From NCBI GenBank assembly GCA_964016885.1, contig OZ024743.1, forward strand, positions 48,608,001 through 48,672,000: a stretch of 64,000 bases of DNA. Reading direction: 5' to 3'. Position numbers and translations under genes: made by a program. The stretch's first letter is position 1. Each line of letters opens with the position of its first letter. Shown piece by piece: positions 10,590 through 52,739 of the stretch. Origin of the DNA: Eledone cirrhosa (Eukaryota). The notes beneath the pieces were generated by a model. The model worked only from the letters and a program-made list of their open reading frames with translations. It did no database searches and was not told the DNA's origin.

Positions 10590-10815
10590 GGAAGCAATTC
10601 AGCGTATCGCACCCCCTCCCCACCTTCCTGAAACAATTACGTCATTTCTTGGGATTAATTAACTTTTATCGTCGCTTTATTCCTAACTGTGCAGGCAAGT
10701 TGTTTCCCTTGACACAGTTTTTAAGGGCTGCAAAAAAGAAAGATGCTCCTATTTCACTTTCTACCGATGCCTTGCAGTCTTTTGAATCCGTGAAGTCCGA
10801 GATAGCTGAAGTTTC
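10590..10815 (+). mobile_element. Gypsy/Ty3 LTR retrotransposon pol fragment (RT-RNase H connection)
   Basis: PTFLKQLRHFLGLINFYRRFIPNCAGKLFPLTQFL...QSFESVKSEI is the canonical Gypsy LRxFLGxxNxYRRFIP motif. Confidence 0.85.
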
Positions 10816-12344: not shown

Positions 12345-13469
12345 ATCATCATCATCACCGTTTTACGTCCGTTCTTCCACGCTAGCATGGGTTAGACGGG
12401 TTGTCCTGTTGTGGGCAGTGTCTGGTCGGCTGACCATGCCTTGCTCATACAGGAACTGATTTGGCTTGATTTCTACAGCTGGATTCCCTTCCTAACACCA
12501 ACCTCATTTACAGTGAGTGCTGGGTGCTTTTTCGTGGCGCCTACACGTCCACTTTACAGTGTGGGCTGGGTGCTTTTTTGCCGTGGCACCTCCACGACCA
12601 CCTTGCGGTGGGGGCATATTGTCTATATGCTTCAGCTTGTACCCATGGGAGGTCGGGTACTCTGTATTACTGCGTGACACCAGAAGTCACGGTCGTGTGT
12701 CATTGCCTTTGAGAGGTGTAATTGGGTAAGGTCGGCTTTTATCACCTCATCCCAGGTCATCTTGGGTCTCTCCACTCCGCGGTTGCCATCAACTTTTAGT
12801 GTTCTGCACCTTTTTATGCAGCTGTCATCCTTCATACGCATCACATGTCCATACCAGTGCAACCGCCTCTCCTGCACACAGCATTTGATTCCTCTTATGT
12901 TCAGTCTCTCTCTCAATTCATTTATGCTTTGTCGTTCACGTATATTACTGTTACACATCCATTGGAGCATGCAGGCTTCCTTTCTCTTTAATCTACGTAA
13001 GTCTTCCACCTTCAGCGCCCAGGTCTTACTACCATGCAACATTGCTGTTCGGATACACGCATCATACAGTCTGCCGTTCATTCTGAGGGAGAAGCCTTTT
13101 GCAGCTAGCAGTGGTAGTAGTTCCCTAAACTTCTTCCATCCCGTTCTTACCCTAGTTATTGTACTTTCTGAGCACCCACCTCCGTTGCTAATTCGGTCAC
13201 CTAGGTAGCAGAAGCTGTCTACTGTTTCTACAGAGCCCTTCCAGAGATTGGTGGTACTTGTTTCTTGTGGCTGTTTGCTGCTTGCTGTCCCAGCACAGCT
13301 GCTGCATGTGAAGCCTACATTCTTAATTAAGCTTCCTGAGATCCCGCTACATCTCTTGTGTACCCATTGTTTGCATTTGGGGCAGAGAATGGAGTTCCTA
13401 CCTACACCTTTCCTACATACTGAGCAAGGCCATTTCCCTGAGGGGATCTGGGTTCTGTTTTCTCGTCTA
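12345..13469 (-). mobile_element. RTE LINE family B, 3' half (PHD, RT thumb, C-terminus, 3' UTR, tail)
   Basis: ORF 12632-13081 (GRLYDACIRTAMLHGS...LHWYGHVMRM) is collinear with the family-B copy at 51638-52738. Confidence 0.92.
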
Positions 13470-13479
13470 TATATATATA

Positions 13480-13595
13480 TACGGCCATATCACGCTGAAA
13501 ACACCGGTTCTCATCCGATCATCGAAGTTAAGCAGCGTAGAGCCTAGTTAATACTTAGATGGGTGACCGCTTGGGAACCCTAGGTGCCGTAAGCA
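13480..13595 (+). rRNA. 5S rRNA sequence (nearly full length, first ~3 nt missing) fused to the 5' end of an RTE LINE; probably not an independent 5S gene
   Basis: TACGGCCATATCACGCTGAAAACACCGGTTCTC...CCGATC..CGAAGTTAAGCAGCGTAGAGCCTAGTTA.TACTTAGATGGGTGACCGCTTGGGAACCCTAGGTGCCGTAAGCA. Helix I is TACGGC/GCCGTA, box A lies at ~13526 and box C at ~13556. No T-run terminator follows. Confidence 0.92.
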
Positions 13596-16500
13596 TTAAA
13601 AAGGACCAATCATAAGTCAGCGGCCTATGCTATCACTTCTTCTGGTTGCTTTTCATATGATGGATGGACTAGGGGATTCTGGAGAGTCTGAAAAATCTGG
13701 ACACTCAGTGATAAAGACAAATTCACCTCATGCTGCCGGACGAAAAGGCAAGGACTCCTCCTCTTTATTTCGGCCGCGGATGGCCAACATAACCCCAACC
13801 CCATCCCCCTCACCTCTCCCCGCGCCCCACTGTCCCCACCCACCAAACGCAACCCAAAACTTCAGAGTTGGTACCAGGAATGTAGGCACCTTAAAAGGTC
13901 ACTCTAACGAGGTTGTAGAAGTGCTTGAGCGTAAGGAGGTTGATGTTTGCTGTATCCAAGAGACCAGGTGGAGGGGTGGGTCTGCTAGATTCATTGTGGG
14001 TAAAAAACGATGCTATAAGCTTTTCTGGGTGGGAAACGACAATGGGCTGGGTGGGGTAGGAATCATGTTAGAAAAATGGGTGGATAAGATAATAGACGTA
14101 AATAGAGTGAACGACAGAATAATTAAAATAAGACTTGTCCTAAATAGAACTACTGTGACAGTAATATCTGCGTACGCACCCCAATCCGGACTGCCTGGCG
14201 TTATAAAAGACAGATTCTATGAGACATTGATGCTCACTACCTCCCAAATAACCAACAGTGACTACATAATTATTGCTGGCGACCTAAATGGTCACGTTGG
14301 ACAACATTGTGATGGCTATGACGGAATCCATGGAGGCTATGGGTTTGGTACTAGAAATGAGGAAGGCTCCAGAATCCTGGAATTCTGTGATGCAAATAAC
14401 CTATCTGTAACACTAACTTCAAAAAACGAGACAATCACCTGATCACCTATAGATCCGAGGAACACGCCAGTCAGATAGATATATCCTTACCAGAAGACGT
14501 GACAGAGTGTCTGTTGTAAACACTAAATCCCTCCCCCATGAAGAATGCACCCCCCAACATAGACTCATAGTCAGGACAAGACATACTCGACAACAGAGGA
14601 GGACTATCTTCAGGAGAAAAATATGGAAGCTAAAGGACCCCACAGCCAGTAATAAATTTATAAGCATATTACTTGATGCTTTTGGCAGTAAGGAAGAGCA
14701 ATTAGAGTCGTACAATATAGAGGAACAGTGGGAATTCCTGAAAGATAACCTGCTGAAGGCGGCAGATGAAGTCTGTGGCTGGAGCAGACCTATAGGCAGG
14801 AGGAGAGTAACATGGTGGTGGAACAGTAAGGTGGAGGAGTCAATTAAGGCCAAAAAGCAGGCTTGGAAAGTATGCTGGGATGGGGATTAGAGAAGACTAT
14901 CAAGTGGCCAGGAGGGAAGCTAGGAGACAAGTGTACTTCACAAGAAGGGAAGCAGAGGAAAGAAAGTTCAAGCATGTTCTACAACGCGAGGACCAAAAAC
15001 GGGAAGTGTTCAGGATTGCTAGGCAATGTGTCAAGGAAAACCGTGATATTGTCGGAGATAAGTGTGTCCTTAATGATGATGGTGCACTTGCCATCACTGA
15101 CGCTGATAAGAAGGTAGCTTGGAAGTGTCACTATGAAAGGCTACTAAATGAGGAGAATAAATGGGAGAAAGACAGTCTCCCCCACATCGATCCAGCAGTG
15201 CTAGTTGAAGGTAGTATAATAAGTAAGGCAATCAAAGATATGAAGACGGGTAAGGCAGCTGGGCCTTTGGAAATAGTTGCTGAAATGCTGAAAGCATCTG
15301 GAACGGTGGGACACACTATGGTCACCCGGATAGTAAACCAAGTCATACAGAATGGGGTCGTTCTGAAGGACTGGCGTAGCAGCAGCATCATTAACTGCTA
15401 CAAGGGTAAAGGAGATGCCCTAGATAGGGGTAACTATAGAGGCATTAAATTAATCGACCAGGTCATGAAGGTCACAGAAAAAGTAATAGCGCAACTAATC
15501 AGAGAGCGAATTGATCTAGATGAAATGCAGTTCACGTTTGTGTCAGGTAAAAGTACCACAGATGCTCTTTTCATTGTACGACAACTACAGGAGAAGTACC
15601 TAGCTAAAAGTAAACCCCTATACTTAGCTTTTGTTGACTTGGAGAAAGCCTTTGACAGAGACCCCGTTCCATTATCTGGTAGGCTCTTAGAAAACTAGGT
15701 GTTGATGAATGGCTTGTGAGAGCTATACAAGCCATGTATAAAGAAACAGTCAGCAGGTTAGAATTAACAACGAATATAGTGAAGAGTTTAGTGTAAAAGT
15801 TGGTGTTCATCAGGGCTCTCTTCTTAGCCCCCTACTATTTATTATTGCCCTTCAGGCTATAACAGAGGAGTTCAAGACCGGCTGCCCATGGGAACTCCTA
15901 TACGCAGATGATCTAACGCTCATAGCTGAATCAATGGCCGAACTAGAGAAGAAATTCCAAACATGGAAGCATGGCCTAGAATCAAAAGGCCTTAAAATTA
16001 ACCTGTCTAAGACTAAAGTTCTAGTTTGTAGGAAGGAAAATAGGGCACCGGTCCCATCTGGGAAATGGCCATGCTCAGTGTGTAGGAAAGGAGTAGGCAG
16101 AAACTCCATTTTATGTCCCAAATGCAAAGTATGGGTGCATAAAAGATGTAGTGGGATCACAGGTAAGCTAACTAAGAATATAGATTTTATATGTGGGCGG
16201 TGCTCTGGTGCAATAAGAAGCAGCAAGTGCCCACAGAATACTAGCTCATTCCATTGCACAGATGGTTCTATAGAAATAGTGGACACCTTCCATTACCTGG
16301 GTGACAAAATCAGCAGTGGTGGAGGGTGCTCTGAAAGTACAGTAGCTAGAGTCAGAACGGGATGGAAAAAGTTCAGAGAGCTTATACCACTATTGGCCGC
16401 TAAAGGGTTCTCTCTAAAAATGAAAGGCAGGCTGTATGATGCCTGCATACGAACAGCAATGTTACATGGCAGTGAGACTTGGGCATTGTGTGCAGAGGAT

Positions 16501-17113
16501 ATACGCAGACTGAAGAGGAACGAAGCTTGCATGCTCCGCTGGATGTGTAATAGTAATATACGTGAACGGCAAAGCATAAACGAACTAAGGGAAAAATTAG
16601 AAATAAGAGGGATCAGATGTTGTTTACTCGAGAGATGGCTACGTTGGTATGGTCACGTGATGCGCATGAAAGACGACAGCTGTATAAAAAAGTGCAGGGC
16701 GATAAAAATAGACGGTAGCCACGGAGTAGGCAGACCCAGAAAAACCTGGGACGACTTGATAAATTCCGACCTCACACACTTACACCTCTCCAAGACAATG
16801 TCACTGGACCGAGATCTTTGGTACTACACAGTAATACAGAAGACCCGCCTTGCCTAAGTACAAAGTGAAACCTACAGTCAGTAGGCACCTCTAACAAAAA
16901 TACACCCCCACCCCATTCAATGTAAAGTTATGTTGGTACCACAATATCCAGTCCGAAACAAATGAGGTCGTGTAGGTGTCACGACAAAAAAACACACAGT
17001 CCACGCTGTAATGTGGCCTTGTAGGTAACACGGTAAAAATCTCCCAGTCCACACTGTAAACGTGGTTGGTGTTAGGAAGGGCATCCCGCCGTAGAAAAAA
17101 ACCCGCCAGACAG
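13596..17113 (+). mobile_element. Near full-length RTE-clade LINE, family A copy A1 (APE endonuclease, RT with PHD insert), frameshifted and 3'-truncated
   Basis: APE motifs: VGTRNVGTL, CIQETRW, ISAYAPQ, AGDLNGHVG. Linker: TWWWN. RT motifs: NYRGIKL, FVDLEKAFDR, HQGS..SPLLF, LLYADDL, YLGDKI. The RTE-type C-terminus reads LRWYGHVMRM..GRPRKTW. ORF pieces: 13627-14442, 14507-14890, 14880-15698, 15934-16857. Confidence 0.95.
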
Positions 17114-17249
17114 ATCGCTAAATCGCCTAATGCGGTCCTTAGGGCAGGACCATAAGTATTACATGTGTAAAGTTTGAAAACAATTGGTTGGGTGGTTCTC
17201 GAGTTTTAGTGAGCTGACAGACAGACATTCTCTGTTTTAGATATATAGA
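17114..17249 (-). mobile_element. Probable 5' end of a non-autonomous Helitron
   Basis: The minus strand starts A|TCTATATATCT followed by (TGTC)n, resembling Helitron-derived repeats. Confidence 0.4.
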
Positions 17250-17609
17250 TTAATCTTTAATGCATAATCATTTCATATTCTGTTGATTAATTTACTTATT
17301 AATTTTTGTATGTGCCTGGGGTTGATAATGAGTCAAAGATTCTAGGAAAGGCTCGATGATCTAGAATATTTATAGACGATCCTGCAATAGACTATCTGGT
17401 CTGAGATATACAATGAAGTGAAATGATCATGACTGCTCAACAGCAATAGCAACGTGGGTGACAAGTGAATTCCAGAAGACTGACGTACTGGGGCAGTATC
17501 TCATATTAGTAAGATTTTACATGTCATGTCTTGTACAAAATTAGTATGTTATGAGCAGCCAGATTAACAGGAGCAGAAGACACTAAATTCTGTAAATTGT
17601 CAGGTGAAG

Positions 17610-17932
17610 ACCCGACCCCCCACAGGAACAAGCCGAAGCTGAAGCATATAGACAATATGCCCCCACTGCAAAGTTGTTGTGGAGGTACCACGGCAAAAAA
17701 GCACCCAGCCCACACTGTAAAGTGGATGTGTAGGCACCACGGAAAAAAGCATCTAGCACTCACTATAAATGAGGTTGGTGTTATGAAGGGTATCCAGCTG
17801 TAGAAATCAAGCCAGAATCAGTTCCTGTATGAGCAAGGCATGGTCAGCCGACCGGACACTGCCCACAACAGGACAACCCGTCTAACCCATGCTAGCGTGG
17901 AAGAACGGACATAAAACGATGATATGATGATG
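17610..17932 (+). mobile_element. RTE family B 3'-UTR fragment
   Basis: Nearly identical to the reverse complement of 12345-12660, with a (GAT)n tail. Confidence 0.85.
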
Positions 17933-18099
17933 TCAAGTATAAATATATCATCATCACCATTTAAAGTCAATTTTTCCATGCTAGAATGGGTTAGACAAGT
18001 TGTCCCATTCGAGGCAAGTCAGGTCAAGTGACTGTGTTTTGCTCATACAGAACTGTTTCTGGCTTGGTTTTGATGGCTGGATGCCCTTCTTAATGCCAA

Positions 18100-18410
18100 C
18101 CACATTTACAGTGTGGACTAGCTACTTTTTATCACGGCATCAAAACAATCACTTTACAGTGTGGGCTGGGCACTTTTTGTCGTGTCACCAACACAACTAT
18201 TTTATAGTGTTGACTGGGCTCTTTTTGTCGTGTCACCAACACAACTATTTTATAGTGTTGACTGGGCTCTTTTTGTCGTAACACCAACACAACTATTTTA
18301 TAGTGTTGACTGGGCTCTTTTTGTCGTAACACCAACACAACTATTTTATAGTGTTGACTGGGCGCTTTTTGTCATGGCACCAAAATTACCACTTTACAGT
18401 GTGGACTGGG
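18100..18410 (-). repeat. 48-bp tandem array (~6 units) expanded from an RTE 3'-UTR subrepeat, within fragment 17948-18410
   Basis: Unit TTTATAGTGTTGACTGGGCTCTTTTTGTCGT(G/A)(T/A)CACCAACACAACTAT. The ORF track shows 16-aa periodicity. Confidence 0.9.
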
Positions 18411-19239
18411 GGAAAGGATGTGTGTATAAGGATGTGAGTGGGGGTGGGTGGGGTGTTATCATTATTATTTTTATCAGAGTTCTAGTCTGACAGTTATATG
18501 TATGTACACACTCATCATCATTTTATGTCTGTTGTTCCATGTTTGCATTGATTGGATGGGTCCTTTTTGGTACAGCATCTCTTCAGTTGTTACATTCTTT
18601 TGCCATCTCTTCCGTGACCTATAGCAATCTGATATCAGCTCACACTACTTCCATCCAGGTCTTCCTCTACTGCAGCTTCCTTCCACTGGGATTTCCAGCA
18701 ATCATCATCCATGTGAATCACCTGTCCATACCAATGCAGTACTAATCTTCTGCACACTACTTCTGATTCCTTTTCTACCCAGTTTCTCACTCAGTTCATC
18801 CATGCTTTGTCTTTCTCCTACATTATTTTGCACATCTATCAAAGCATACTTGTCTCATTTCTCTCCAGTTTTGTATGAGCAAGACAAGGTCAGCCGACCG
18901 AGCATTTCTCACAACGGGACAAATCCTCTAACCCATGCTAGCGTGGAAAAATGTAGGTTAAACGGTGATGATGATGGTCTTACAAGTTTAAAACTGGTAA
19001 ATCCCAATCTCTCTATATTTATATATACATAGTTAAAAATGAAACTAACGAATATAAAAAATATATAAATTTGGCTTTCTTGAATTATCCAAATGTTTTG
19101 TTTTCGCATTAATACATCTAAATTATCTCAATATGTTTCTCCCCCTCCACTAGTACACATGCTTTTAAAATTGAGTTATTTTTACATATCCAAGAAGCAT
19201 TAATTTTATTTTGTGTGTAAGGCTGAAAATTTCACATGT

Positions 19240-19745
19240 AAATTGCAGGAGCTGGTGCAGAAGTCTGCCTGCTTCAGCATTTGGTAATCAGAAAAGGGGA
19301 GGTAGTTGTAAAAGCCAAACTCTCTATTTTCAATTCGGTATTCATACCAACCCTTACCAATGGTCATGAATCTTGGGTAATGACCAAAAGAATACGATCA
19401 CAAATAGAAGTGCCTGAAATGGGGCTCCTCCAAACGGCCTTTGGAGTAATGTTACTCGATAGAGTGCATCGTTCAGTGATCAGAGAGATGCTACTTCTCC
19501 AAATTGAAAGATCACAACTTCGATACTATGAGCATATGGATAGAATGTCTCAAGAAAGAATCGTTGGACAGATTTTATGGACAAAACTAACTGGCGGTAG
19601 ACCCCCAAAAAGATAATAACATTCATGAGCTTGGCTGGCCACGACTTGGGATCCAGCCAGATCAGTTGGAAATGATTGCATCTAACAGGACCTACTGGAA
19701 GGTCTGAGGATTCTGCCCCAACGACCAAGGAAGAGGAGGTAATTA
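19240..19745 (+). mobile_element. Expander/Rex3-like RTE 3' fragment
   Basis: KAKLSIFNSVFIPTLTNGHESWVMTKRIRSQIEVPEMG...LLLQIERSQLRYYEH. Confidence 0.85.
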
Positions 19746-19944
19746 CGCTAAAACGAAACTTATTCATTTCGTTTATTTAAGAAAGAAAGTTATTTTTTAC
19801 ACTGCCCTTTAGTGTTAGTTTCATTTTTAATCAGTCACGTTATTAATTTTGATCCATGCATAGTAATATCGATTATATTGCCTGGCAATTGCTTGATGAC
19901 AAAACACTTCTGAAAAGAACTGATCAGAGCATACAAATTAGTTA

Positions 19945-21480
19945 ATCAGTATCGGTAGAGGGTCGGACGCCATGCTTTCCAGCATAGTTACGTCCCTTTA
20001 TGATCTTAGTTCAAATCCCGCCGAGGTTGACTTTGCCTTTCATCCTTACAGGGTCGATAAAATAAAGTACCAGTCATGCACTGGGTAATTGCTGGCCTTG
20101 TGCCTAAAGTAGAAACAATTATTTAGGCAAACAAAGGGCGATGGATTGGCAGTATTTGTAGAGGGTCGTACGCCATGCTTTGCAGCATAGAGTTACGGCC
20201 CCTTATGGTCTAAGTTCAAATCCCGCCTTTCATCCTTACGGGGTCGATAAAATAAAGTACCAGTAATACACTATGATAATTGCTGGCCTTGTGCCAAAAG
20301 TAGAAACAATTACTTAGACAAACGTATCCAGGACCATGCGTATATATATGTATGTGTGTGATAAACTTAGGAAAATTAACAAAGAGAGGACAAGACAATT
20401 AACGAAAATAAGGCAAAATGAAAAATATTTTTTAAGGGGAAAACCACGGAAGACTACAGACTCACGGGTCTTTGAGATGTACTTTGGCAATTTCAACCCC
20501 TGCCACGGTACTGCTGGTTCGATCGGGGTCACAGCGTCTGACACAAGTCAAAACGCTGTCCGTGGAGTAAGAGACTAGAAAAAACAATAATTTATAATAG
20601 TTAAACTATAATATGTATACATTCAATTTATGTGACGTCAAGGAAAACGTATTGTACTTTATATAGCACGGGAGTCTCATGAGTGAAACAAAGGAGAAAA
20701 AAGAAGAATAGGATGGGAAAAGGGCAAGAAGAAGAAAGTAAGATATCGTGTTAAAAAATGTGAGCCATTGAAATTAATGGAGGGAGAAAAGAGAATACGT
20801 TCGTCACAGATTAGTAATGACAAACTTAGGAAAATTAACAATTTCTTTTTTGTACAACAACATGGAATAACATAAGAAAACTTAAATTAGACCATTTTTG
20901 CTATGTTTATTTAAAAAGACCATGTCAACATTTAGAATCCTGCAACAGTTTGCGCGTTCCAGATAAGCCAACTCCATAACCTTGTTGGTGTTATTTCACC
21001 TCAATTAAGGGCGGTGAATTGGCAGTATCGGTAGAGGGTTGGACGCCATGCTTTCTAGCATAGTTACGTCCCTTTACAGTCTGAGTTCAAATCCCGCCGA
21101 GGTTAACTTTGCCTTTCATCCTTACGGGGTTGATAAAATAAAGTACCAGTAATGTACTGAGTTATTGATGGCCTTGTGCCAAAAGTGGAAACAATTATTT
21201 TCAGTTAATCAGGGCAGTGAATTGGCAGTATCGGTAGAGGGTCAGACGCTTTGCTAAAGTAGAAACAGTTATTTCACCTCAATTATATCGCTGAGTCCTC
21301 TTCTGTAAATAATTGTTTCTACTATTGGCACAAGGCCAGCAATTATTCAGTACATTACTGGTACCTTATTTTATCGACCCCGTAAGGATGAAAGGCAAAG
21401 TTAACCTCGGCGGGATTTGAACTCAGAATGCGTCAAAGCATGGAGTCTGACACTCTACCGATGCTGCCAATTCACCAATG
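19945..21480. mobile_element. Cluster of five copies of the tRNA-like SINE (four plus, one minus)
   Basis: Repeated TGGCAGTATCGGTAGAGGGTCGGACGCCATGC...GTTCAAATCCCGCCGAGG...GCCTTTCATCCTTACGGGGTCGATAAAATAAAGTACCAG. Confidence 0.85.
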
Positions 21481-22449
21481 TGAGTTTGTTTCTATGTAAT
21501 CAATGATTTAGCCAATCGATTAATTTCAATATGCTAAGCACAAGGGAAGTAAGTATAAAAAAAATAAACTCCTCCGAATTAACTCCCTTGTAAAGCTATT
21601 CATTTTCGATCTTCTAATTTAAATCTAATATTCATATGATATCTATTTAAAAGCTATTCAAAATGGTTTTTCTTCGGACAAAAAAAAAAGCTACAACAAA
21701 AACCATATATAATAAACAGTATAAAGGATATTTTGTGTCTGCTTTCTTAAAATTAACGTTGCGTGTTTTTATGCACATGTATTGTTCCATTCCTTAATGT
21801 TTTCATTTGCTGGTTTATGTTTGTAGTTGATTAAATGTCAAGCTTTCCAACTTCATGTCGATGATAAATAATATCAATCAGGATGTCAGATATTCTACAG
21901 CAAAGCAATAGGATTCCTACAACTATAAATTGCAGGGGTTGGAGGAACGAATTTGTCATCAATATAAGCGAAAACATTAAAAATGTGTATTATTGACAAA
22001 GTTACGAAGAAACTCAGTCAGAGGGGAACACTAAACTGTAGCTATGGCCATATGTTTATTACCAAGTACAATTATATACTCGTGTGAGAAACTTTTAAAA
22101 AGTAATAATGTAACTAAACTAGATGGAATAACCCATACTTTTAGAATTAAATTAACTGCTGATTTATCAAACACCGGTTTTATACAATCGGAAGTTTACT
22201 GGAAAGACGTCACATTGAAGACATCTGGCTAACCAGTTTATAACGTCACTTCCTTCTAAAAACAACTGTATTGAGTTTAATTCAGAAGGAAAGCATAAGA
22301 GGTATCACTCACTGACAATCCAAAAAAGGCGTACGGACAAGGTTACGCGTATAAACAAAGCACAACCTACAGCTATAAATATACTCAATGTTCAGATGTT
22401 TGAAACAGATTTATTCGTACTAGAAAATTATTTTACTTTTAAGTATTTT

Positions 22450-23990
22450 AATGGACGCTGCACACCAGGTCCGAAATCACTGTCATCGCCTCCATCTCTC
22501 TCACCCTCCCCATCTCTCTCTATTATGAGCAAATGGGGCCCCACGACAAAATGGAGAAGGCGTTTCCTCGGAGGATGGTAAGGGAAATGTGCTGGAAGAG
22601 CCTTTCCATATCGCGAGACTCGCACCTGCGGCTAGCCAGCTCAGCACCTATGGTAAGTAGTGAGGTAACCCTAGAGCCAAGAACACTAGAAATCTCCACT
22701 GCTAGGGGCTCGACTGCAAACCTGTCGGAGAGTTTACCTTCCTCAGTTGCAGACTAAACCAGGTTATCGTTGGAGAATGTGTCTTCCGAGGGGAAGATGG
22801 TCATACCGTCTGGCCTTTTCCATCCCCACAGGCTTGAGCTGGGAGGGGAAGTCCACAGCATCCAAGCCATGCTTTATGACCTTGTTGAGGGCAGCATGGC
22901 GTGGAAGGCGGCCGGCACTGTAGCAACAGGAAAACGATTGGAGGCTGAAAGAGTCCACTGGATCCGCAGTGACATTTGTGTGCCTTGCAGATCCGGTGGC
23001 CAAGCCTCAGGGAGATCCCAATGCGCAGGCTATCGTTGTCCAGCTGCGTGCCAGTGGAGAAGGAGAGTCAGGCATGAAGTCAGGTACCACTGAGGAAAAC
23101 ATGCAAAGCGGTGCTGGTCAAGTTGGCGCGCTAGCTTGTCTGAGGCCAGGTTGCATTGGATGGCATCCCAAATAATCTGGGAGACTCAACGTCAGCAAGG
23201 AGTGCTACGAAGAGTATACAGGAGCTTCGGCATGGCGAAGCATTTACTCGGGAAGAGCGATGGGTGGGCATCAACCATGGTCAGTCAGCTTGTGAGGGTC
23301 TTGAGTTGCTGAAGCCTAGACCTGATGGTGGAGCAGATGCCTGGCAGGTGGATTGGTAACCCGAGGATGAGGACATCCTCTTTAGGGGTCACCTGTACCT
23401 GAAGAAGAATGGACCGGATGTCTGAGATGGAAGCCACAAAACTCTCAGCATTGTGGTTGACATTCACCACCTCTGACTTGAACGAGTTGACCTGAAGGCC
23501 GATTCCCACCAGAGCAGGAACCGCCGATTGTACATCGTGACAGACGGTCTCCACGGGCCTGCCCAACGTAGCATCATCCAGGTACCAAACATTGAGGGGG
23601 GGGGGCTGTGATACTCCAAGCAATGTGGTCTATACCAAGAGCAAATAGGAGGAGGCTAAAAGGGTCACCCTGTTGGAACCCAGTGGATGAAGGTATGACT
23701 GTATCAGCAGCAAGGAGCATGCTCAGGGCTCCATATGACGAGTAGGCAGAGGGGTATTGGCTGAGGCAGGCCTCGAGCAGATGGTCACGGCATTGGCAGT
23801 TAAAGGCATTCCTTATGTCAAGCTTGACAATGAGGTGCCTGAAGTCCCTGGATACCGGTTCCGGTGGGCAGCTATTGAAGAGCTGCCCCTCACAACCACC
23901 ATACACGCTGACACTCAGTTACACCGGGCTGAGCTCCTCGCCCAGTTCAGGTGTGATGGACCAGGGTGCCATGGATAAACCAGCTCATAG
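22450..23990 (-). mobile_element. CRE-like non-LTR retrotransposon remnant (RT plus restriction-like endonuclease region)
   Basis: VKLDIRNAFN, GFQQGDPFSLLLFALGI, VWYLDDATLG and RHAALNKVIKHGL; frameshifted. Confidence 0.75.
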
Positions 23991-24404
23991 GTTATTTCAA
24001 TGAAATATAACTTCAATAGTGTTAGAAAATATATTTTTTCTTCTAGCTACATGTTAGAGAACCATGCTATTGCATTACAGCTATCTATATGTGTAGTTCT
24101 TTTTTTAAGAAAGAGGCTATATTGCTGATCCTGGTAAAATAGACCCCCAGGCTATTTTCATATATCCCAAAATTGTTGGCCTTGTGCCTAAATCAGAAAC
24201 CATTATTATGAAGGCAGGTAATGTTAAAACATGGTTTAACGCAGTTTATTTATTTTCACCAATTATTAAGACAATTTAAACACTTACCCTAACCCTCACC
24301 CCATTCATATTTATATTTACGGGTAAGATGAGCTTAACTATAAATAGTCTGTCGTTAGAAATATGCTGATTAAAGAATTATGTCAGAAATTAAAATATAT
24401 GTTG

Positions 24405-24700
24405 GTTACAACATCCAGTCCAAACTAATGAGATCGAGATCATGTAGGTTTCACGACAAAAAACACACAGTTCACACTGTAATGTGGTTGTGTAGGTAAT
24501 GGTAAAAAAAGCTCACAGTCCACACTGTAAATGTGGTTGGTGTTAGGAAGGGCATCCAACCGTAGAAAACCTGCCAGATAGTCCTATACGAGCGAGACAC
24601 GGTCACCCGACCAATCTTGCCTCAAGTGGGACAACTCCCGTCTAACCCATGCTAGCGTGGAAGATGGATGTTAAACGACGATGATGATGATGATGATGAT
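24405..24700 (+). mobile_element. RTE 3'-UTR fragment with (GAT)n tail
   Basis: Reverse-complement match to 7469-7760. Confidence 0.85.
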
Positions 24701-24759
24701 ATTAAAAGCAAACAAAGAACGTAGTCAACGCCAAATTCAATGAATTTGATGTTAAAGGT

Positions 24760-25980
24760 GCTATTTGCATCCTTTGCTCAGTGCACTACTGATTCACTCA
24801 ACCGACTGAGTAAGAAACCTCCTCTGGCCCCTCCAGATGACCACTTACATTGGCCCAATCCACCAGGTTATTTACAACCCGCCTTCACCAAAGATAACGT
24901 GGATTCTGGTGCAGGGATTGATGGTCTACGACCTCAGCACCTCAAGGATGGTGTCTCCTTGAGTTCTTGGAGAACCTCACCCAGTTCATAAACCTGTTCT
25001 CGACCAAGAGTGTCCTCCCTTATACTCACCCCCTGTTCTTTGGGGCTAAACTGTTTGGCCTCACAAGGCCCAAGCTGGGCTGTGAGACTGCTGCTCACGC
25101 CACCGGAGCATTTATCAACTTGCCTTTTGAAACCAAGGTTATCTTCAAGCTAGATCTCAAGAATGCTTTCAATTCCATCAATTGGGATGTCATTCCTGAG
25201 ATCTAGCTTGAAGGTAACCTTGATGAATGCTTTACCACATTGCTTGGCAAGCTTATCATGAGTCCTCTTACTTATCCTTTGGTGATCCACTTGGTCCTGC
25301 TCAGTTCACACTGGGCATTAATGATGTCACCAAGACAGGAGTTGATCTAGATTTGAATGTCTGGCATCTGGATGATGCTTGTTTGAGGGGTCTTCCAAAA
25401 AAGTCCTTGCAACCGCAAAGACGATGATAGAGGAACTGGGTCGTAAGGGCCTTCATGTCAACAGTTGCAAATGTGAGCTCTGGCTCATGAACCACCGAGC
25501 TTCACATCAGCTGACTTGACCTGTTTACTGATTCCTTCCCCTCTATTGTGGTTTCTTCCTTGGAGCCCCAATTATTGACCAACCTATCGAGTCAATTTTT
25601 CGATCTAAGTTGGTTAACCTCGAGTAACTTTTAATAAATCTCAAAGTCAGTGAGTCTCACCAAGGTTTTTATACTTAGGAATTACTTGTCAATTCCTAAG
25701 TTGCTGTATTTCATCAGAGTTAGTCCCTCTCACAGATTTTCGTTGTCTGGTCAATGTCAGACTCTCTCCAGAGTCCCACGAACAGGCTACCTTTCCCAAA
25801 CAGTTTAAAGGTCTCAGTTTATGTAAATGCTTGTCTTTGTCTCTACCTTGCTCCCCTTTAGTGGGTGACATCCTCTCCTTTCCAACATGGACTAGTTCTA
25901 CCAGGGAGATGGATGAAGCTTTACTACAGTGGAAAGAATTGGGCTTGTCTGTTGTATGGCTGCAGCCTAACAGCTGAAAC
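24760..25980 (+). mobile_element. Second CRE-like retrotransposon remnant
   Basis: SGAGIDGLRPQHLKD, PLFFGAKLFGL, GCETAAHA, KLDLKNAFNSI, GDPLGPA and VWHLDD. Confidence 0.75.
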
Positions 25981-26509
25981 AAGTAATTTCCAATAAAGAT
26001 AATTATAAAAAGAAAGTGTGTCCATGTTCAAATAAAAAATTAAAAAAGGAATTCATAGTTTTTGTTCATTTAGCAACCCATGTGAGTGGAAAAACAGACA
26101 AAAATGATGATGATTTTGCTGAGAACATATTTATTGCTTTACTATGCCCATCACCAACAATTAAAAGTTTCATTACTATAAACCCTTTTGATACTAAAAT
26201 GACCCTGGCTTTACAATACAAAACTTTATTTTAAAGAGTTTAGCATTATCATCGTCTATCATAATTCTATGCAAAAGCCTTAAATTATTTCCCCGAAACC
26301 AGTTTACTGATGAGAAAGTTAGTTATATTACCAAATGTTTCAAAGCGATTTGAAAAAAATCATAGACAGTCTTTCATGAGAACTATGGTAACAAAATGGT
26401 TAATGTATTGAAATGTGGAAAAGGAAAGTCTATTGGAGCCATTTCTTTCCAGCTATTTATTACAGCTGGAAATTAGACTCCACATAACAGTAGCTTATCA
26501 TTATCAAAA

Positions 26510-26654
26510 ACACAACTACCTTAGAAACATGAAACAAACCACCCATACCAGGACATACCCATACTAAGATGACTGTACCCTAGGAAAGACAATAACACAA
26601 CTACCTTAGAAACACGAAACAAACCACTCATACCAGGACATACCCATACTAAGC
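26510..26654. repeat. Direct duplication (~59-bp matches, 86-bp period)
   Basis: ACACAACTACCTTAGAAACA.GAAACAAACCAC.CATACCAGGACATACCCATACTAAG occurs twice. Confidence 0.85.
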
Positions 26655-26759
26655 ATTAGAACACCACTCACCTAGAACCCAAATGATAAATCATCATCTT
26701 AACCCTTTTGATATGTTTTCAAAATAATCAAAATTTAAAAGAAATTTATTAATATAACT

Positions 26760-27255
26760 AAGAATAAAGATAGGATGGAAAAAGTTTAGATAACTGCTCC
26801 CACTGCTTACAACAAAAGGAAGGCTGTATGACACCTGTGTAAGGTGTGCAAAACTGCATGGTAGTGAAACATTGGCTGTGACAGCAGAGGACATGCGTAG
26901 ACTGGAGAGAAATGAAGAACCATGTTTCATTGGATGTGCAATGTAAGTGTGAGAGAAAGGCAGAGCTTGGACGAGCTGAGAGAGAAGCTGGGCTTAAGAG
27001 GAATCTGAGGTGTGCAGGAGAGAAGACTGTGTTGGTATGGGCATGTGATGTACATGGACAATAACTGATTGATGAAGAAGTGCCAGGAAGTCGCAATAGA
27101 GGATGACCAAGAAAGAGGTTGTGAGAACGGACCTCAAATCACTAAAACTGGTAGAGGAGATGATGAAGAAGCAACAAGTGGACAGATGCTGAGAAGGACC
27201 TGTTCAACCCATGCAAGAATAGAAAAGCGTCCGTAAAAACAATGATGATGATGAT
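26760..27255 (+). mobile_element. Older RTE 3' fragment
   Basis: GWKKF, LHGSETLAVTAEDMRRLERNE and WYGHVM, plus a (GAT)n tail. Confidence 0.8.
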
Positions 27256-27329
27256 AAAACTTTGCTTTGTACTACAGGCAACCTGAACATAGAATCAGTA
27301 ACACTGTCTCCAATATGAACACCTCCTTA

Positions 27330-27888
27330 TTCATCATCACTGTTTTACATCCGTTCTTCCACGCTAGCATGGATTAGATGGGTTGTCTTGTTGTGGGCAG
27401 TGCCTGGTCGGCTGACCTTGTCTAGCTCATATGGGGACCCCAGTCCTATCATCTCATTTCTACAGCTGAGTAAACTGGAGCAATGTGAAATAAAGCATCT
27501 TTGCTCAAGGAAACAACACATCACCAATTGAACTCACAACCTTTCGATTGCCATGTATGTATATATATTATATATATATATATTATATATATATATATAT
27601 ATATAATATATATATATATCATCATCATTTCATTTTACGTCCGCTTTTTCCCTGGCTTGATTTCTACAGCTGGATGCCCTTCCTAACACCAACCTCATTT
27701 ATAGTGAGTGCTGGGTGCTTTTTTGCCGTGGCACCTCCACGACCTCATTTCTACAGCTGAGTAAACTGGAGCAATGTGAAATAAAGTGTCTTGCTCAAGG
27801 AAACAACACATCACCCAGTCTGAGAATTGAACTCACAACCTTTCAATTGCAAGGCCAATGCTCTAACCACTAAGCCCCATGTGCCTCC
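27330..27888 (-). mobile_element. Rearranged copies of the CORE-like tRNA SINE with RTE-B tail, interrupted by (TA)n
   Basis: Matches the reverse complement of 37877-38200 with deletions. Confidence 0.75.
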
Positions 27889-27919
<31 letters not shown>

Positions 27920-27936
27920 ATATATATATAATATAT

Positions 27937-28701
27937 ATCATCATCATCATCATCGTTTAACGTCCATGTTCCACGCTTGCATGGGTTTGGACGGGAGTTT
28001 TCCCACTTGAGGCAAGAGTGGTTGTCATTGCTCACATAGGACTGTCTGGCGGGTTTTCTACAGCTGGATGCCCTTCCTAACACCAACCACATTTACAGTG
28101 TGGGACTGGGAGGTTTTTACCGTGTTGCCTACACGGCCACATTACAGCGTGGACTGTGTGTTTTTTGTCGTGACACCTACACGATCTCATTTGTTTCGGC
28201 CTGGATGTTGTGGCACCAACATAACTTTATATTGAAAGGGGCGGTGTGGATGGGCTGGGGATGGTGGGACGGGGGAGTATTTTGTTAGAGATGCCTACTG
28301 ACTGTAGTAGGTTTTACTTTGTATTTAGGTAAGGCGGGTCTTCTCTATTACTGAGTACCGCCAAAGATCTCGGTCCAGTGACATTGTCTTGGAGAGATGT
28401 AAGTGTGTGAGGTCGGAATTTATCAGGTCGTCCCAGGTTTTTCTGGGTCTGCCTACTCCGTGGCTACCGTCTATCTTTATTGCCCTGCACTTTTTTATAC
28501 AGCTGTCGTCTTTCATGCGCATCACGTGACCATACCAACGTAGCCATCTCTCGAGTAAACAACATCTGATCCCTCTTATTTCTAATTTTTCCCTTAGTTC
28601 ATTTATGCTTTGCCGTTCACGTATATTACTATTACACATCCAGCGGAGCATGCAAGCTTCGTTCCTCTCTAGTCTGCGTATATCCTCTGCACACAATGCC
28701 C

Positions 28702-28703
<2 letters not shown>
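27937..28703 (-). mobile_element. RTE family A 5'-truncated copy flanked by (TA)n
   Basis: ORF 28325-28696 is nearly identical to the C-terminus of A1. The 3' UTR and (GAT)n tail are complete. Confidence 0.93.
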
Positions 28704-28748
<45 letters not shown>

Positions 28749-28749
28749 A

Positions 28750-28790
<41 letters not shown>

Positions 28791-28888
28791 TATATATATA
28801 TATATATATATTATATATATTATATATATTATATATATATATATATATTATATATATATATATATTATATATATATATATTATATATA
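28704..28888. repeat. Long imperfect (TA)n microsatellite
   Basis: Seen directly in the sequence. Confidence 0.95.
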
Positions 28889-29964
28889 TTTTGCAATGTG
28901 AGGACCAGAAACAGGTGTTCAAGATTGCGAGGCAGTGTGTCAGAGAGAATTGTCATTGGAGAGAAGTGTATCCGGAATGATAAAGGTGAGCTTGCCCTCA
29001 CAAGTGCTGAGAAGAAAGATGCATGGAAGAGTCATTATGATAGATTACTAAATGAGGAGAATGCATGAGAAGAAGAGACCCTACCCCAAGTAGACCCTAT
29101 AGAGGGGCCAGCAGTACAAGTCAGCAGCAATGTAGTAAGTAAGGCAATCAAAGATATGAAGATGGGGAAGGCAACCGGTCCATCGGGTATAGCTGCCGAG
29201 ATGCTGAAGGCATCTGGGTCTGTAGGTCACACTATAACCACACATATTGTTAACCAGGTAATACTAGAAGGTGTCATACCAAAAGATTGGTGCAGTAGCA
29301 TCATTGTCAACTGCTACAAAGGTAAAGGTGATGCACTAGATAGAGGAAACTATAGAGGTATAAAGCTGATGGACCAGGTCATGAAAGTAACAGAAAGAGT
29401 TATAGCACAGTTGATTAGGGACCGGGTGAAACTAGACGAGATGCAATTTGGGTTTGTACCAGGAAGAGGCACCACTGATGCCCTCTTCCTTGTGAGGCAG
29501 TTACAGGAAAAGTACCTAGCTAAAAGTAAGCCACTCTACCTGGCATTTGTCGACCTTGAGAAAGCCTTTGACAGAGTTCCACGTGCTGTAATCTGGTGGG
29601 CTCTTAGAAAACTAGGAGTAGATGAATGGCTTGTGAAAGCGGTACAAGCCATGTATAGGGGAGCAGTCAGTAAAGTTAGGATTAGCAATGAGTATAGCGA
29701 GGAATTTAGCGTACAGGTTGGGGTCCACCAGGGCTCTGTTCTTAGCCCCCTCCTGTTCATCATAGTCCTGCAGGCAATAATGGAGGAGTTTAAGACCGGA
29801 TGCCCATGGGAACTCCTGGATGCTGAAGACCTCGCACTTATAGCTGAATCTATGGTAGAACTAGAGAAGAAATTCCAAACTTGGAAGCAGGGACTAGAAA
29901 GAAAGGGTCTCAAAGTCAACATGACAAAGACTAAGGTCCTTGTAAGTAGACGAGAAAACAGAAC
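28889..29964 (+). mobile_element. RTE family B, RT-containing segment (5' partner of 12345-13469)
   Basis: ORF 29156-29986 carries RT motifs. It ends at TAGACGAGAAAACAGAAC, the same 18-mer at which the 12345-13469 fragment begins. Confidence 0.92.
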
Positions 29965-32879
29965 GTCTTTCATGCGCATCACGTGACCATACCCACGTAG
30001 CCATCTCTCGAGTAAACAACATCTGATCCCTCTTATTTCTAATTTTTCCCTTAGTTCGTTCATGCTTTGCCGTTCACGTATATTACTATTACACATCCAG
30101 TGGAGCATGCAAGCTTCGTTCCTCTCTAGTCTGCGCATATTCTCTGCACACAATGCCCAGGTCTCACTGCCATGCAACATTGCTGTTCGTATGCAGGCAT
30201 CATACAACCTGCCTTTCATTTTTAGGGAGAACCCTTTAGCGGCTAATAGTGGTATAAGCTCTCTGAACTTTTTCCATCCAGTTCTGACTCTAGCTACTGT
30301 ACTTTCAGAGCACCCTCTCCCGCTGCTGATTTTTGTCACCCAGGTAACGGAAGCTGTCCACTATTTCTATAGAACCCTCTGCGCAATTGAAAGAGCTAGT
30401 ATTTTGTGGGCACTTGCTGCTACTTATTGCACCAGAGCACCGGCCACATGTAAAATCTATGTTCTTAGTTAGCTTACCTGTGATCCCACTACATCTTTTA
30501 TGCACCCATACTTTGCATTTGGGACATAAAATGGAGTTTCTACCTACGCCTTTCCTACACACTGAGCATGGCCACATCCCGGAAGGGACCGGCGCCTTAT
30601 TTTCTTTCTTACAAACTAGAACTTTAGTCTTAGCCAGGTTAATTTTAAGGCCTTTTGATTCTAGGCCGTGCTTCCATGTTTGGAATTTCTTCTCTAGCTC
30701 GGCCATTGATTCAGCTATGAGCGTTAGATCATCTGCGTATAGGACATGGGCAGCCGGTCTTGAACTCCTCTGTTATAGCCTGAAGGGCAATAATAAATAG
30801 TAGGGGGCTAAGAACAGAGCCCTGATGGACGCCAACTTTTACGCTAAACTCTTCACTATATTCGTTGTTAATTCTAACCTTGCTGACTGTTTCTTTATAC
30901 ATGGCTTGTATAGCTCTCACAAGCCATTCGTCAACACCTAGTTTTCTAAGAGCCCACCAGATAATGGAACGGGGGACTCTGTCGAAGGCTTTCTCCAGGT
31001 CGACAAAAGCTAAGTATAGGGGTTTACTTTTAGCTAGGTACTTCTCCTGTAGTTGTCGTACAATGAAAAGAGCGTCTGTGGTACTTTTGCTTGACACAAA
31101 CCCGAACTGCATTTCATCTAGATCAATTCGCTCTCTGATTAGTTGCGCTATTACTTTTTCCGTGACCTTCATGACCTGGTCGATTAATTTAATGCCTCTA
31201 TAGTTACACCTATCTAGGGCATCTCCTTTACCCTTGTAACAGTTAATGATGATGCTGCTATGCCAGTCCTTCGGAACAACCCCATTCTGTATGACTTGGT
31301 TTACTATCCGGGTGACCATGGTGTGTCCCACCGTTCCAGAGGCTTTCAGCATCTCAGCAACTATTTCCGAAGGCCCAGCCGCCTTACCCGTCTTCATATC
31401 TTTGATTGCCTTACTTATTATACTACCTTCGACTAACACTGCTGGTCCCTCTATTGGGTCGATGTGGGGGAGACTGTCTTTCTCCCATTTGTTCTCCTCA
31501 TTTAGTAGCCTTTCGTAGTGACACTTCCAAGCTACCTTCTTATCAGCGTCAGTGATGGCAAGTACGCCATCATCGTTAAGTACACACTTCTCCCCAACAA
31601 TATCACGGTTTTCCTTGACACATTGCCTAGCAATCCTGAACACCTCACGTTTTTGGTCCTCGCGTTGTAGAACATGCTTGAACTTTCTTTCCTCTGCTTC
31701 CCTTCTTGCGAAGTACACTTGTCTCCTAGCTTCCCTCCTGGCCACTTGATAGTCTTCTCTAATCCCCATCCCAGCATACTTTCCAAGCCTGCTTTTTGGC
31801 CTTGATTGACCCCTCCACCTTACTGTTCCACCACCATGTTACTCTCCTCCTGCCTACAGGCCTGCTCCAGCCAGACTTCGTCTGCCGCCATCAGCAGGTT
31901 TGCTTTCAGGAATTCCCACTGTTCCTCTACCTTGTACGACTCTAATTGCTCTTCCTTACTGTCGAAAGCATCAAGTAATATGCTTTGAAATTTATTTCTG
32001 GCTGTGGGATCCTTTAGCTTCCATATTTTTCTCCTGAGGATAGTCCTCTTCTGCTGTCTAGTACGTCTCGTCCTGACTATGAGGTCGCTAATTATCAGTC
32101 TATGTTGGGAGGTGCATTCTTCATGGGGGAGGGATTTAGTGTTTACAACAGACACTCTGTCACGTCTTCTGGTAAGGATATAATCTACCTGGCTGGTATG
32201 TTCTCCTGATCTGTAGGTGATCAAGTGATTGTCTCGTTTTTTGAAGTTAGTGTTACAGATAGTTAGGTTGTTTGCATCACAGAATTCCAGGATTCTGGAG
32301 CCTTCCTCGTTTCTAGTACCAAACCCATAGCCTCCGTGGATTCCGTCATAGCCGTCACAATGTTGTCCAACGTGACCATTTAGGTCGCCAGCAATAATTA
32401 TATAGTCACTGTCGGTTATTTGGGAGGTAGTGAGCATCAGTGTCTCATAGAATCTGTCTTTTATAGCGCCAGGCAATCCGGATTGGGGCGCGTATGCAGA
32501 TATTACTGTCACAGTAGTTCTGTTTAGAACAAGTCTTATTTTAATTATTCTGTCATTCACTATTTACATCTATTATCTTATCCACCCATTTTTCTGCTAA
32601 CATGATTCCTACCCCACCTATCCCATTGTCATTCCCCACCCAGAAAAGCTTATAGCAACGTTTTTTACCCACAATGAATCTAGCAGACCTGCCCCTCCAC
32701 CTGGTCTCTTGGATACAGCAAACATCAACCTCCTTACGCTCAAGCACTTCTACAACCTCGTTAGAGTGACCTTTTAAGGTGCCTACGTTCATGGTACCAA
32801 CTCTGAAGTTTTGGATTGTGTTTGGAGGATGGGGCGCAGGGAGGGGTGAGGGGAATGAGTTTGGGGTTATGTTGGCCAT
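29965..32879 (-). mobile_element. RTE family A copy A2 (APE, RT, PHD), truncated at both ends
   Basis: ORFs 32553-32879, 31820-32560, 30729-31769, 30305-30706 and 29965-30339 are highly similar to A1. The 5' end is at the MANIT ATG, adjoining (TA)n. Confidence 0.95.
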
Positions 32880-32909
32880 ATATTATATATATATATATTA
32901 TATATATAA

Positions 32910-33575
32910 GACGATCGCTAATAAGCTTGAAACTAGTACAGCGTTCCTTTGTCAGTGTTGAACAAACAAGCAACGATGGTTGCTAAACACTACGGCTTAA
33001 TATGGGATATTTGTTTTCAAACACACCGAGCATTATAATAAATGTTCGGTGAATCCATTCGTACATATATATATGTGTGCATGTATGTATATATATATAT
33101 ACATACTACTGTACGTCTGTATACATATATGTATGTACGTGTACATACTTATATTTAAGTAACAGCCGTACTCAGAGTGGGAAATGAAATTTTGTTTCAT
33201 TTTTTCCGTTTATCGTTTTCGGTGCACCCGGCCGATTAACCCACTTGATATGCAAATTGGGCTACTCAGCCGTTAATATACATAAGGTAAGTATATATGT
33301 TCAACAATCTGGCAGGAAGGTATACGTTGCTGACGATAGCTAATAAGCTTGAAACTAGTACAGCGTTCCTTTGTCAGTGTTGAACAAACGATCAACGATG
33401 GTTGCTAGACACTACGGCTTAATACGGGATGTTTGTTTACAAACACACCGAGCATTATAATAAATGTTCGGTGAATCCATACGTACATATATATATAAAT
33501 ATGTGTGCATGTATGTATATATACATACTACTGTACGTCTGTATACATATATGTGTACATACTTATATATATATA
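32910..33575. repeat. Tandem duplication, ~420-bp period
   Basis: GACGAT.GCTAATAAGCTTGAAACTAGTACAGCGTTCC... starts at both 32910 and 33332. Confidence 0.85.
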
Positions 33576-51150: not shown

Positions 51151-52739
51151 AGGAAAAAGCTCCACTGATGCTCTCTTCCTCGTGAGGCAGTTGCAGGAAA
51201 AGTACCTAGCTAAAAGTAAGCCCCTCTACCTGGCATTTGTCGATCTGGAAAAAGCCTTTGACAGAGTGGCCCCATGCCATAATCTGGTGGGCTCTTAGAA
51301 AACTAGGAGTAGATGAATGGCTTGTGAAAGCTGTGCAAGCCATGTATAGGGGAGCAGTCATCAAAGTTAGGGTTAACAATGACAATAGCGAGGAATTTAG
51401 CATGCAGGTCGATGTCCACCAGGGCTCTGTTCTTAGCCCTCTTCTGTTTGTTATCGTATTGCAGGCTATAACAGAGGAGTTTAAGACCAGATGCCCATGG
51501 GAACTTCTGTATGCGGATGATCTTACACTTATGGCTGAATCTATGGCGGAACTAAAGAAGAAATTCCTAACATGGAAGCAGGGATTAGAAAGGAGGGGTC
51601 TCAAAGTCAACCTGCCAAAGACTAAGGTCCTCATAAGTAGACGAGAAAACAGAACCCAGATCCCCTCAGGGAAATGACCTTGCTCAGTATGTAGGAAAGG
51701 TGTAAGTAGGAATTCTATCCTCTGCTCCAAATGCAAACTATTGGTACACAAGAGATGTAGTGGGATCTCAGGAAGCTTAGTTAAGAATAGGTTTTACATG
51801 TAGCAGCTGCACTGGGACAGTAAGCAGCAAACGGCCACAGGAAACAAGAACTACCAAAATCTGGGAGGGTGGGTGGGTCTGTAGAAACAGTAGACAGCTT
51901 CTACCTAGGTGACCAAATTAGCAGTGGAGGTGGCTGTGCTGAAAGTACAGTAAGCAGGGTAAGAATGGGATGGAAGAAGTTCAGAAAGCCACTGCTAGGT
52001 GCAAAAGGCTTTTCCCTCCAAATGAAAGGCAGACTGTATGATGCATGTATTTGAACAGCAATGTTACATGGTAGTGAGACCTGGGTGCTGTGCCTAGAAG
52101 ACTTGCGTTGATTAGAAAGAAATGAAGCTTGCATGCTCCAATGGATGTGTAATAGTAATATACGCGAACGGCAAAGCATAGATGAACTGAGAGAGAGACT
52201 GAGCATAAGAGAAATCAAATTGGACATGTGATGCGTATGAAGGATGACAGCTGCATAAAAAGGTGCAGAGCACTAAAAGTTGATGGAAGCCATGGAGTGG
52301 GGTGACCCAAGAAGACCTGGACGAGGTGATAAAAGCGGACCTTGCCCAATTGCACCTCTCAACAGCGATGACACAGGACCGTGACCTCTGGCGTCACGCA
52401 GTAATACAGAAGACGCGACTTTCCACGGAAACGAGCTGAAGCATATATACAATATGCCCACATACCCTCCCACTGCAAAGTGGTCGTGGAGGTGCTACGA
52501 CAAAAAAGCCCCCAGACCACATTGTAAAGTGGACATGTAGGCGCCATGGAAAAAAAGCACCCAGCACTCACTGTAAATGAGGTTGGTGTTAGGAAGAGCT
52601 TCCAGCTGTAGAAATCAAGCCAAAATCAGTTACCATATGAGCAAGACAAAATCAGCTGACTTAACTTTGCCCAAACAGGACAACCTGTCTAACCCATGCT
52701 AGCATGGAAGAATCAACGTAAAATGGTGATGATGATGAT
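51151..52739 (+). mobile_element. RTE family B, 5'-truncated copy (RT, PHD, C-terminus, 3' UTR, tail)
   Basis: FVDLEKAFDR, HQGSVLSPLLF, LLYADDL and a PHD remnant, with a (GAT)n tail. It shows the uninterrupted sequence across the 18-mer at 51638-51655. Confidence 0.92.

Follow-up and report, generated by a model that had tools for sequence, protein, structure and literature searches.

A 64,000-nucleotide stretch of the Eledone cirrhosa genome (assembly GCA_964016885.1, contig OZ024743.1, positions 48,608,001 to 48,672,000 of the forward strand), below called the window, contains a long interspersed nuclear element (LINE) of a family termed B, which is split into two parts of opposite orientation, each adjoining a copy of a second LINE family termed A. 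The two copies of one target-site duplication stand, inverted to each other, at the two broken ends of B. The block between the A copies, A1 and A2, was, with a probability of roughly 0.67, inverted relative to the split B element by ectopic homologous recombination of A copies which had been inserted separately and in opposite orientation. The feature is real in the assembly and is probably a true inversion of a known kind.

The split B element and its inverted duplication

12345..13469, minus strand: 3' half of a family-B LINE with the (GAT)n tail, the 3' untranslated region (UTR) and the end of the open reading frame (ORF) including a PHD finger; 88.3% ungapped identity to 51638-52739
28890..29964, plus strand: 5' part of a family-B LINE with the reverse transcriptase (RT) region, 5'-truncated against a 186-bp (TA)n; 88.1% ungapped identity to 51151-51655
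51151..52740, plus strand: unbroken family-B copy used as reference; contains the 18-mer once, at 51638-51655
13452..13469, minus strand: target-site duplication, copy 1, 15-18 bp
29947..29964, plus strand: second copy of the target-site duplication, in the opposite orientation to the first

The 18-mer TAGACGAGAAAACAGAAC was present in three exact copies in the 64 kb: at both broken ends of B (29947-29964, plus strand; 13452-13469, reverse complement) and once in the unbroken B copy (51638-51655, plus strand), exactly as claimed in an earlier note on this DNA. In the alignment to the unbroken copy, the 3' half (12344-13469) corresponded to 52740-51638 and the 5' part (29461-29964) to 51151-51655. 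When the two junctions were juxtaposed, the overlap of the B sequence was exactly the 18-mer. The inverted pair interpreted in the earlier note as an 18-bp duplication does exist, but its length was determined to be 15-18 bp, not firmly 18 bp, because the terminal TA of the 18-mer passes without a break into the (TA)n filler, and the G that opens the 18-mer could equally be read as the base that follows in A.

The ungapped identity of the B halves to the unbroken copy was 88.3% over 1081 and 88.1% over 504 positions, and their identity to family A was 76-81%. Both halves are therefore consistent with one split element. The inverted 18-mer at B ends which are in register, together with the equal distance of the halves from the third copy, speaks for the inversion by recombination. 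Two characteristics of inversions mediated by recombination of transposable elements (TEs) were observed: the first swapped duplication was split between both breakpoints in inverted orientation, and homologous copies in opposite orientation were located at both breakpoints. According to PMC2775673, copies that recombined ectopically are expected to be oppositely oriented and chimeric and to have exchanged their duplications, the swapped duplications being the hallmark.

It is highly improbable that there was no inversion and that two unrelated B fragments ended near the same position by chance or site preference. The abundance of B-like pieces, the conservation of the 18-mer even in the third B copy, and the lack of B's own duplication inside the block, where chance-level matches only were detected, away from the B 5' end, would all suit such a coincidence. 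However, in an element of at least 2 kb, two ends would fall in register to within 18 bp by chance in about 0.5% of cases (a rough estimate), and both fragments abut A copies and share the 88% identity to the third copy.

The A copies at the breakpoints

13599..17113, plus strand: A1 with the 5' UTR, a broken single ORF (APE endonuclease, RT, PHD) and the 3' UTR; ATG at 13780, stop at ~16857
29965..32879, minus strand: A2, starting at the ATG and ending within the ORF at the A1-equivalent 16675, with 1-bp microhomology
27938..28703, minus strand: A3, 5'-truncated family-A copy between (TA)n runs; its tail is intact, and it served as reference for the A 3' end
13470..13479, plus strand: (TA)n filler at the 5' junction, continuing the terminal TA of the duplication
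32880..32916, no strand: (TA)n filler adjoining A2 on its 5' side, with a doubtful 5-bp reciprocal match at 32912-32916

A1 (13780-16675) and A2 (32879-29964) were aligned in opposite orientation with 93.2% identity over 2934 columns, with 147 substitutions and 12 indels, which confirmed the earlier description of them as inverted repeats of ~2.9 kb on the plus and minus strands, respectively. The truncations of both copies are absent from that description. A2 ended inside the ORF and, measured on A3, ~570 bp before the (GAT)n tail would start; A1 ended in the 3' UTR, ~100 bp before it. The earlier statement that flipping the block restores one B element interrupted by one A element was correct for B, but the A element is not intact, as its 3' end of ~570 bp including the tail is lost. 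The reconstructed insertion of A into B was without a tail yet had a clean duplication with 1-bp microhomology, a combination indicative of internal priming. Tails were also absent from 2 of the 5 other LINE pieces of at least 500 bp in the window, which do not lie at the breakpoints.

The 5' junction of A1 bears on a further alternative, in which an 18-nt staggered break in B and another break between a tandem pair, the truncated A2 and the A1 headed by 5S rRNA, inverted 13470-29964. Staggered breaks are a source of inverted duplications at breakpoints, and homology would not be required. The second break would have to coincide exactly with the 5' junction of A1, though, and the TA filler at that junction resembled the other 5' insertion junctions of the window. 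In addition, the missing 570 bp of A2 were not found behind A1. This course of events is very improbable.

Source lineages and the shared tract

14846..14939, plus strand: 94-bp identical A1/A2 run in which both copies have rare alleles at 14875 and 14876 and a broken frame at ~14886; A2 partner at ~31803-31710

Among the 131 codons with a single change between A1 and A2, 82 changes were synonymous and 49 non-synonymous, compared with an expected synonymous share of 29% (p=2e-15); the ratio of non-synonymous to synonymous rates (dN/dS) was ~0.24. The synonymous excess indicates that much of the divergence arose in active source lineages. Judged by their coding sequences, A1 and A2 come from two source lineages about 5% apart. 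Their origin as a DNA-level duplicate of one A copy, or as two copies of one source RNA, was ruled out by the same excess.

To these data were added contigs of four runs (X1-X4) placed on 11000-17630, with the contig depth as a rough measure. X1-X3 had small word shares, mainly in repeat parts, and were not used as evidence of orthology. At 14875, X4 had G in 133064 of 133234 depth units, and A1 and A2 both had C, which amounted to at most ~14 of ~11,400 single-copy equivalents, a depth that marks the family as very abundant. At 14876, C was present in 94% of X4, and both copies had T. About 10 bp further, A1 and A2 had a common frame break, at a stretch where the frame was open in all 13 aligned homologues and where two gap letters appeared in a single contig each of X1 and X2. 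Since a rare damaged haplotype is common to copies of different lineages 17 kb apart, gene conversion is the best explanation. The stretch 14846-14939 is likely an A1/A2 gene-conversion tract and the best candidate for the crossover site, and as such it supports ectopic recombination between A1 and A2.

Another candidate for the crossover was considered first. The AT-ward differences between the copies switched near 14140 from A2-rich (4 versus 15) to A1-rich (76 versus 37), with a permutation p of 0.005-0.006. This candidate was downgraded after the first 80-100 bp, a C-rich N-terminal linker, had been removed (p=0.19-0.36). The polarisation of the A1/A2 differences by B copies was uninformative (29 versus 37), and the relatives, at most 65% identical among the matches listed, were too distant for this purpose.

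The identity of A1 and A2 was 97.1% at 15545-16030 compared with 94.7% at 16052-16675. The excess may be due to RT conservation or to a second converted stretch.

Proposed course of events

The inversion by recombination would have proceeded as follows. A 5'-truncated B element of ~2.2 kb, deduced from the two halves, would have been present first. An A copy, X, would then have been inserted into it in antisense orientation, duplicating the observed 15-18 bp. The cDNA of X was likely primed internally, because the tail is missing; a template switch or a ligation of RNAs likely joined the 5S rRNA to X, and the (TA)n filler of X likely arose by slippage from the terminal TA of the target. A second copy, Y, of another source lineage would have stood 13 kb away in opposite orientation. 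X and Y would have paired over 2.9 kb, and a crossover would have flipped the block and exchanged the flanks, resulting in A1 with the head of X and the tail of Y and A2 with the head of Y and the tail of X. This pairing likely left its conversion footprint at 14846-14939, which is also the best crossover candidate. Y likely either never had a tail and a duplication of its own or lost them by a later deletion.

The earlier note had also proposed an inversion by ectopic recombination. Its flip logic was sound and gained support from the shared rare-allele tract, but the second duplication is doubtful and the chimerism of the copies putative. The size of 13-19 kb is in the range of known LINE-mediated inversions. 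In primates, 21 cases of L1 inversions were described, more than half of them larger than 10 kb (PMC2603318), and in deer mice ~47% of short inversions had homologous TEs at both ends (10.1101/2024.05.29.596518).

Several observations weigh against the recombination of A1 and A2. Of the two swapped duplications to be expected, the first alone is convincing; its counterpart was 5 bp long with an offset of 2-3 nt (null p=0.015), and a tandem paralog at 33332 puts the start of the outer flank 2 nt before the 5-bp match. Both A1 and A2 are tail-less, which is unusual for independent normal insertions. A conversion tract can arise after any origin and indicates pairing, not crossover; the 94-bp identical run was no longer than expected by chance (p=0.55), and the alleles were read from 40 of the 655 variant rows, further shared alleles being possibly hidden. 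The 14140 change point lost its significance without the linker, as given above, and the amino-acid polarisation of the A1/A2 differences was even (11 versus 12, with 34 undecided and some off-frame rows). Finally, no non-inverted allele was seen, X1 and X2 having almost no depth on the unique flanks.

The loss of both tails leads to an alternative that is absent from the readings of the earlier note and would require a single step. Two concurrent A-family cDNAs would each have been finished on the end of the other site: for A2, priming would have taken place at the B site and joining at 32910; for A1, priming at 17113 and joining at 13469. In a variant, the nascent X cDNA would have recombined with an existing Y. 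No non-inverted allele with two copies would exist after such an insertion-coupled reciprocal inversion. The same swapped duplication is predicted, and the 18-mer heteroduplication is present but does not discriminate this course from recombination. One event would account for both missing tails and for the 3' junction at 29964, which misfits the Tn-TA start of duplications described in PMC13295347: the duplication starts with G in the sense of A and has no T run ~10 nt upstream, and T4 and TA stand at its far end instead (one site only). The similar damage per copy (23 versus 21 non-synonymous AT-ward changes) also suits it. Precedents come from human L1: heteroduplications of 18 bp accompany the mechanism in tumours (10.1101/2024.08.27.596794), and it has also been described in reporter cells (PMC13526784). 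However, both sources concern L1 in tumours and cell lines only. The insertion-coupled inversion also presupposes RNAs of two different sources, used at sites with 13 kb between them, and a later conversion, the tail loss was seen also in 2 of the 5 other long pieces, and a single deletion could account for the loss of the A1 tail together with the cut repeat at 17114. This explanation, the chief competitor of recombination, is considered unlikely. A heritable one-step inversion, meaning tumour-type synchronous insertion in the germline of two internally primed non-L1 LINE cDNAs, one of them capturing a full-length 5S, is in the same way doubtful.

It was also considered that the genome is non-inverted and that the assembler crossed from one A copy to the other within a run of identical sequence. 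No contig spanned a junction or A1 or joined its flanks in any of the four runs, a mis-join could put the private alleles of one copy in both, and one candidate locus in PMC2603318 was an assembly error. In contrast, the longest identical run of A1 and A2 was 95 bp within a 2.9-kb repeat at 93%, and the window contained no N even across the 186-bp (TA)n, which suggests long reads. The three X4 contigs of the flanks differed from the assembly at 0, 0 and 1 places; X4 may be the source sample and so is not independent. An assembly artefact is improbable.

The probable inverted block and the second junction

16676..29964, no strand: minimum inverted block, 13.3 kb, deduced
17114..17240, plus strand: fragment of a high-copy repeat that flanks the second junction on the inner side; depth ~2000 times single copy (X4 bin 17216-17437)

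Because the crossover must fall within the shared homology, the inverted block extends at least over 16676-29964 and at most over 13780-32879 (19.1 kb); with a crossover in the shared tract it would be ~16.9 kb. The minimum of 17114-29964 given in the earlier note was corrected accordingly. Repeat fragments only were found in the block, and no host gene.

At the second junction, CGATC at 17113-17117 was matched in inverted orientation at 32912-32916. This 5-bp reciprocal match was rightly called weak support earlier, as 1.5% of 5000 position pairs drawn at random did equally well. The A1 tail, the second duplication and part of the flank repeat may have been lost together in a later deletion. 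A 14-bp palindrome at the second site rejoined in silico was rejected as a signal: 19 other 14-bp palindromes that are not AT-only occurred in the window.

The repeat at 17114-17240 contained a short hairpin and (GACA)n and was cut at the truncated 3' end of A1; it resembles a Helitron-type non-autonomous end. On the outer side, a direct repeat (32910-33153 and 33332-33575; 244 columns, 88%) was found, the first copy of which begins at the TA filler of A2.

The 5S rRNA head of A1

13477..13595, plus strand: full-length sense 5S rRNA copy heading A1, the first 3 nt replaced by a TA run; Rfam RF00001, 104.5 bits

The 5S match spanned model positions 1-120 and was the only RNA found by Rfam in the window. 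It was located inside the duplication and was followed by a 5' UTR common to hundreds of copies, the X4 depth of which was 435-1780 single-copy equivalents at 13636-13815. At one X4 joint, different letters stood before 13602, and none of the rows listed covered the join of 5S and UTR. A run of four T, here near 13651, would stop polymerase III. In distant related loci, no 5S head was detected in 80 loci by nhmmer or in 20 by Rfam. The "5S-headed A element" of the earlier note is a correct description of the A1 copy; its extension to the family is doubtful. On the evidence of these sequences, the 5S head is probably a one-off capture or chimera rather than a family trait.

Human 5S/L1 chimeras were mostly truncated and antisense, and U6/L1 chimeras full-length and sense (10.1101/2025.02.02.635956); short interspersed nuclear elements (SINEs) with a 5S head and RTE parts are also known (PMC5786205). 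In the literature covered, with most subscription papers outside it, there was no report of an RTE-type copy with an ORF and a full-length 5S in sense orientation, and none of this locus, the absence of either being unproven; on internal priming with 3' truncation nothing was found.

Element class

Families A and B each had a single ORF with an APE endonuclease, an RT and a PHD finger, and the same was found in intact relatives of ~1050 amino acids. The anatomy of the RTE clade was present: PF03372/PF14529 and PF00078, 181 bp before the ATG, and no ORF1. The short-repeat 3' tail (GAT)n was present on the A3, A0 and B copies and missing on A1 and A2. Both families are taken by us to be RTE elements, following the earlier note and the anatomy. 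Among the 120 and 120 protein matches listed, none exceeded 65% identity, and they were unnamed or hypothetical.

A PHD finger (PF00628) was located directly after the RT domain in both families (16070-16205 and 13295-13425) and also in many unnamed relatives.

Comparison with known systems and significance

The inversion resembles the L1 recombination-mediated inversions of primates (PMC2603318) in the two opposite LINE copies at the breakpoints, the mismatched duplications and the size of 10-20 kb. It differs in that a non-L1 family is involved, that one clear duplication is present and both copies are tail-less, and that the inversion was deduced from one assembly without an outgroup allele. 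The Galileo inversion 2z3 of Drosophila buzzatii (PMC2775673) is similar in the opposite orientation and in the exchanged target-site duplication as the diagnostic feature. Galileo, however, is a DNA transposon with both duplications exchanged and both copies chimeric, whereas the chimerism is only a candidate here. The synchronous L1 reciprocal inversions (10.1101/2024.08.27.596794; PMC13526784) also have two retrotransposon bridges with a heteroduplication at each. Those inversions were described from tumours and cell lines and show poly(A) tails and endonuclease motifs; the present inversion is presumably germline, with tail-less bridges and a conversion-like tract.

In the case of the 5S head, the U6/L1 and 5S/L1 chimeras (10.1101/2025.02.02.635956) are comparable in having a small RNA 5' of a LINE within one duplication pair. 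In contrast to the 5S/L1 chimeras, the 5S here is full-length and sense, like in U6/L1, and heads a nearly full-length non-L1 element. CoeSINE5 and HaSE3 (PMC5786205) similarly have a 5S head on RTE-derived sequence, ascribed to template switching. These are short non-coding families, whereas the present copy is single, with the ORF kept and the tail lost; because of the lost tail, the 5S-headed A copy could not found a family.

In its most likely reading, the locus is another case of LINE copies flipping the intervening DNA. Its functional impact looks low, since the block holds repeat fragments only. The nested insertion records the inversion in a single assembly and needs no outgroup, and the test is usable genome-wide in repeat-rich animals. 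The copies exchanging sequence would be from distinct source lineages ~5% apart. If the insertion-coupled inversion were true, a mechanism of tumours and cell lines would be extended to heritable variation and to another LINE family.

Further observations in the window

The exact A-family motif gave 0 matches in viral and metagenome contigs, and the outer flank gave 0 matches in viral contigs. The folding of the A 5' UTR gave no hint of an unusual structure (z=-0.22).

Two decayed RT fragments of another LINE type were located in the block, at 22700-23950 (minus strand) and 24700-25750 (plus strand), with no Pfam match; their motifs resemble CRE/restriction-endonuclease-type elements. Among 47119-47427, 60905-62559 and 10304-10840, a Pif1 2B-domain fragment (PF21530) was found, and fragments presumably Penelope-like and Gypsy-like by resemblance, with no Pfam match.

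Runs of (TA)n were present 5' of 6 of the 9 LINE pieces of at least 500 bp and of 7 of the 24 pieces overall (701, 1339, 13470, 28704-28889, 32880, 37115), and AT followed right after the (GAT)n tail in many 3' flanks. This suggests TA targeting combined with slippage at second-strand priming. A3 and the 5' part of B stand head to head across one 186-bp (TA)n (27889-28889), and A3 is bordered by (TA)n at either end, which would suit an insertion into the 5' filler of B.

A 112-bp tandem duplication (98%) was detected at 190-421 in the 3' UTR of an A copy. In X4, some copies repeated the 5' UTR stretch 13602-13639 with 31 other letters in between, and the family-A 5' UTR may thus have a variable tandem unit.

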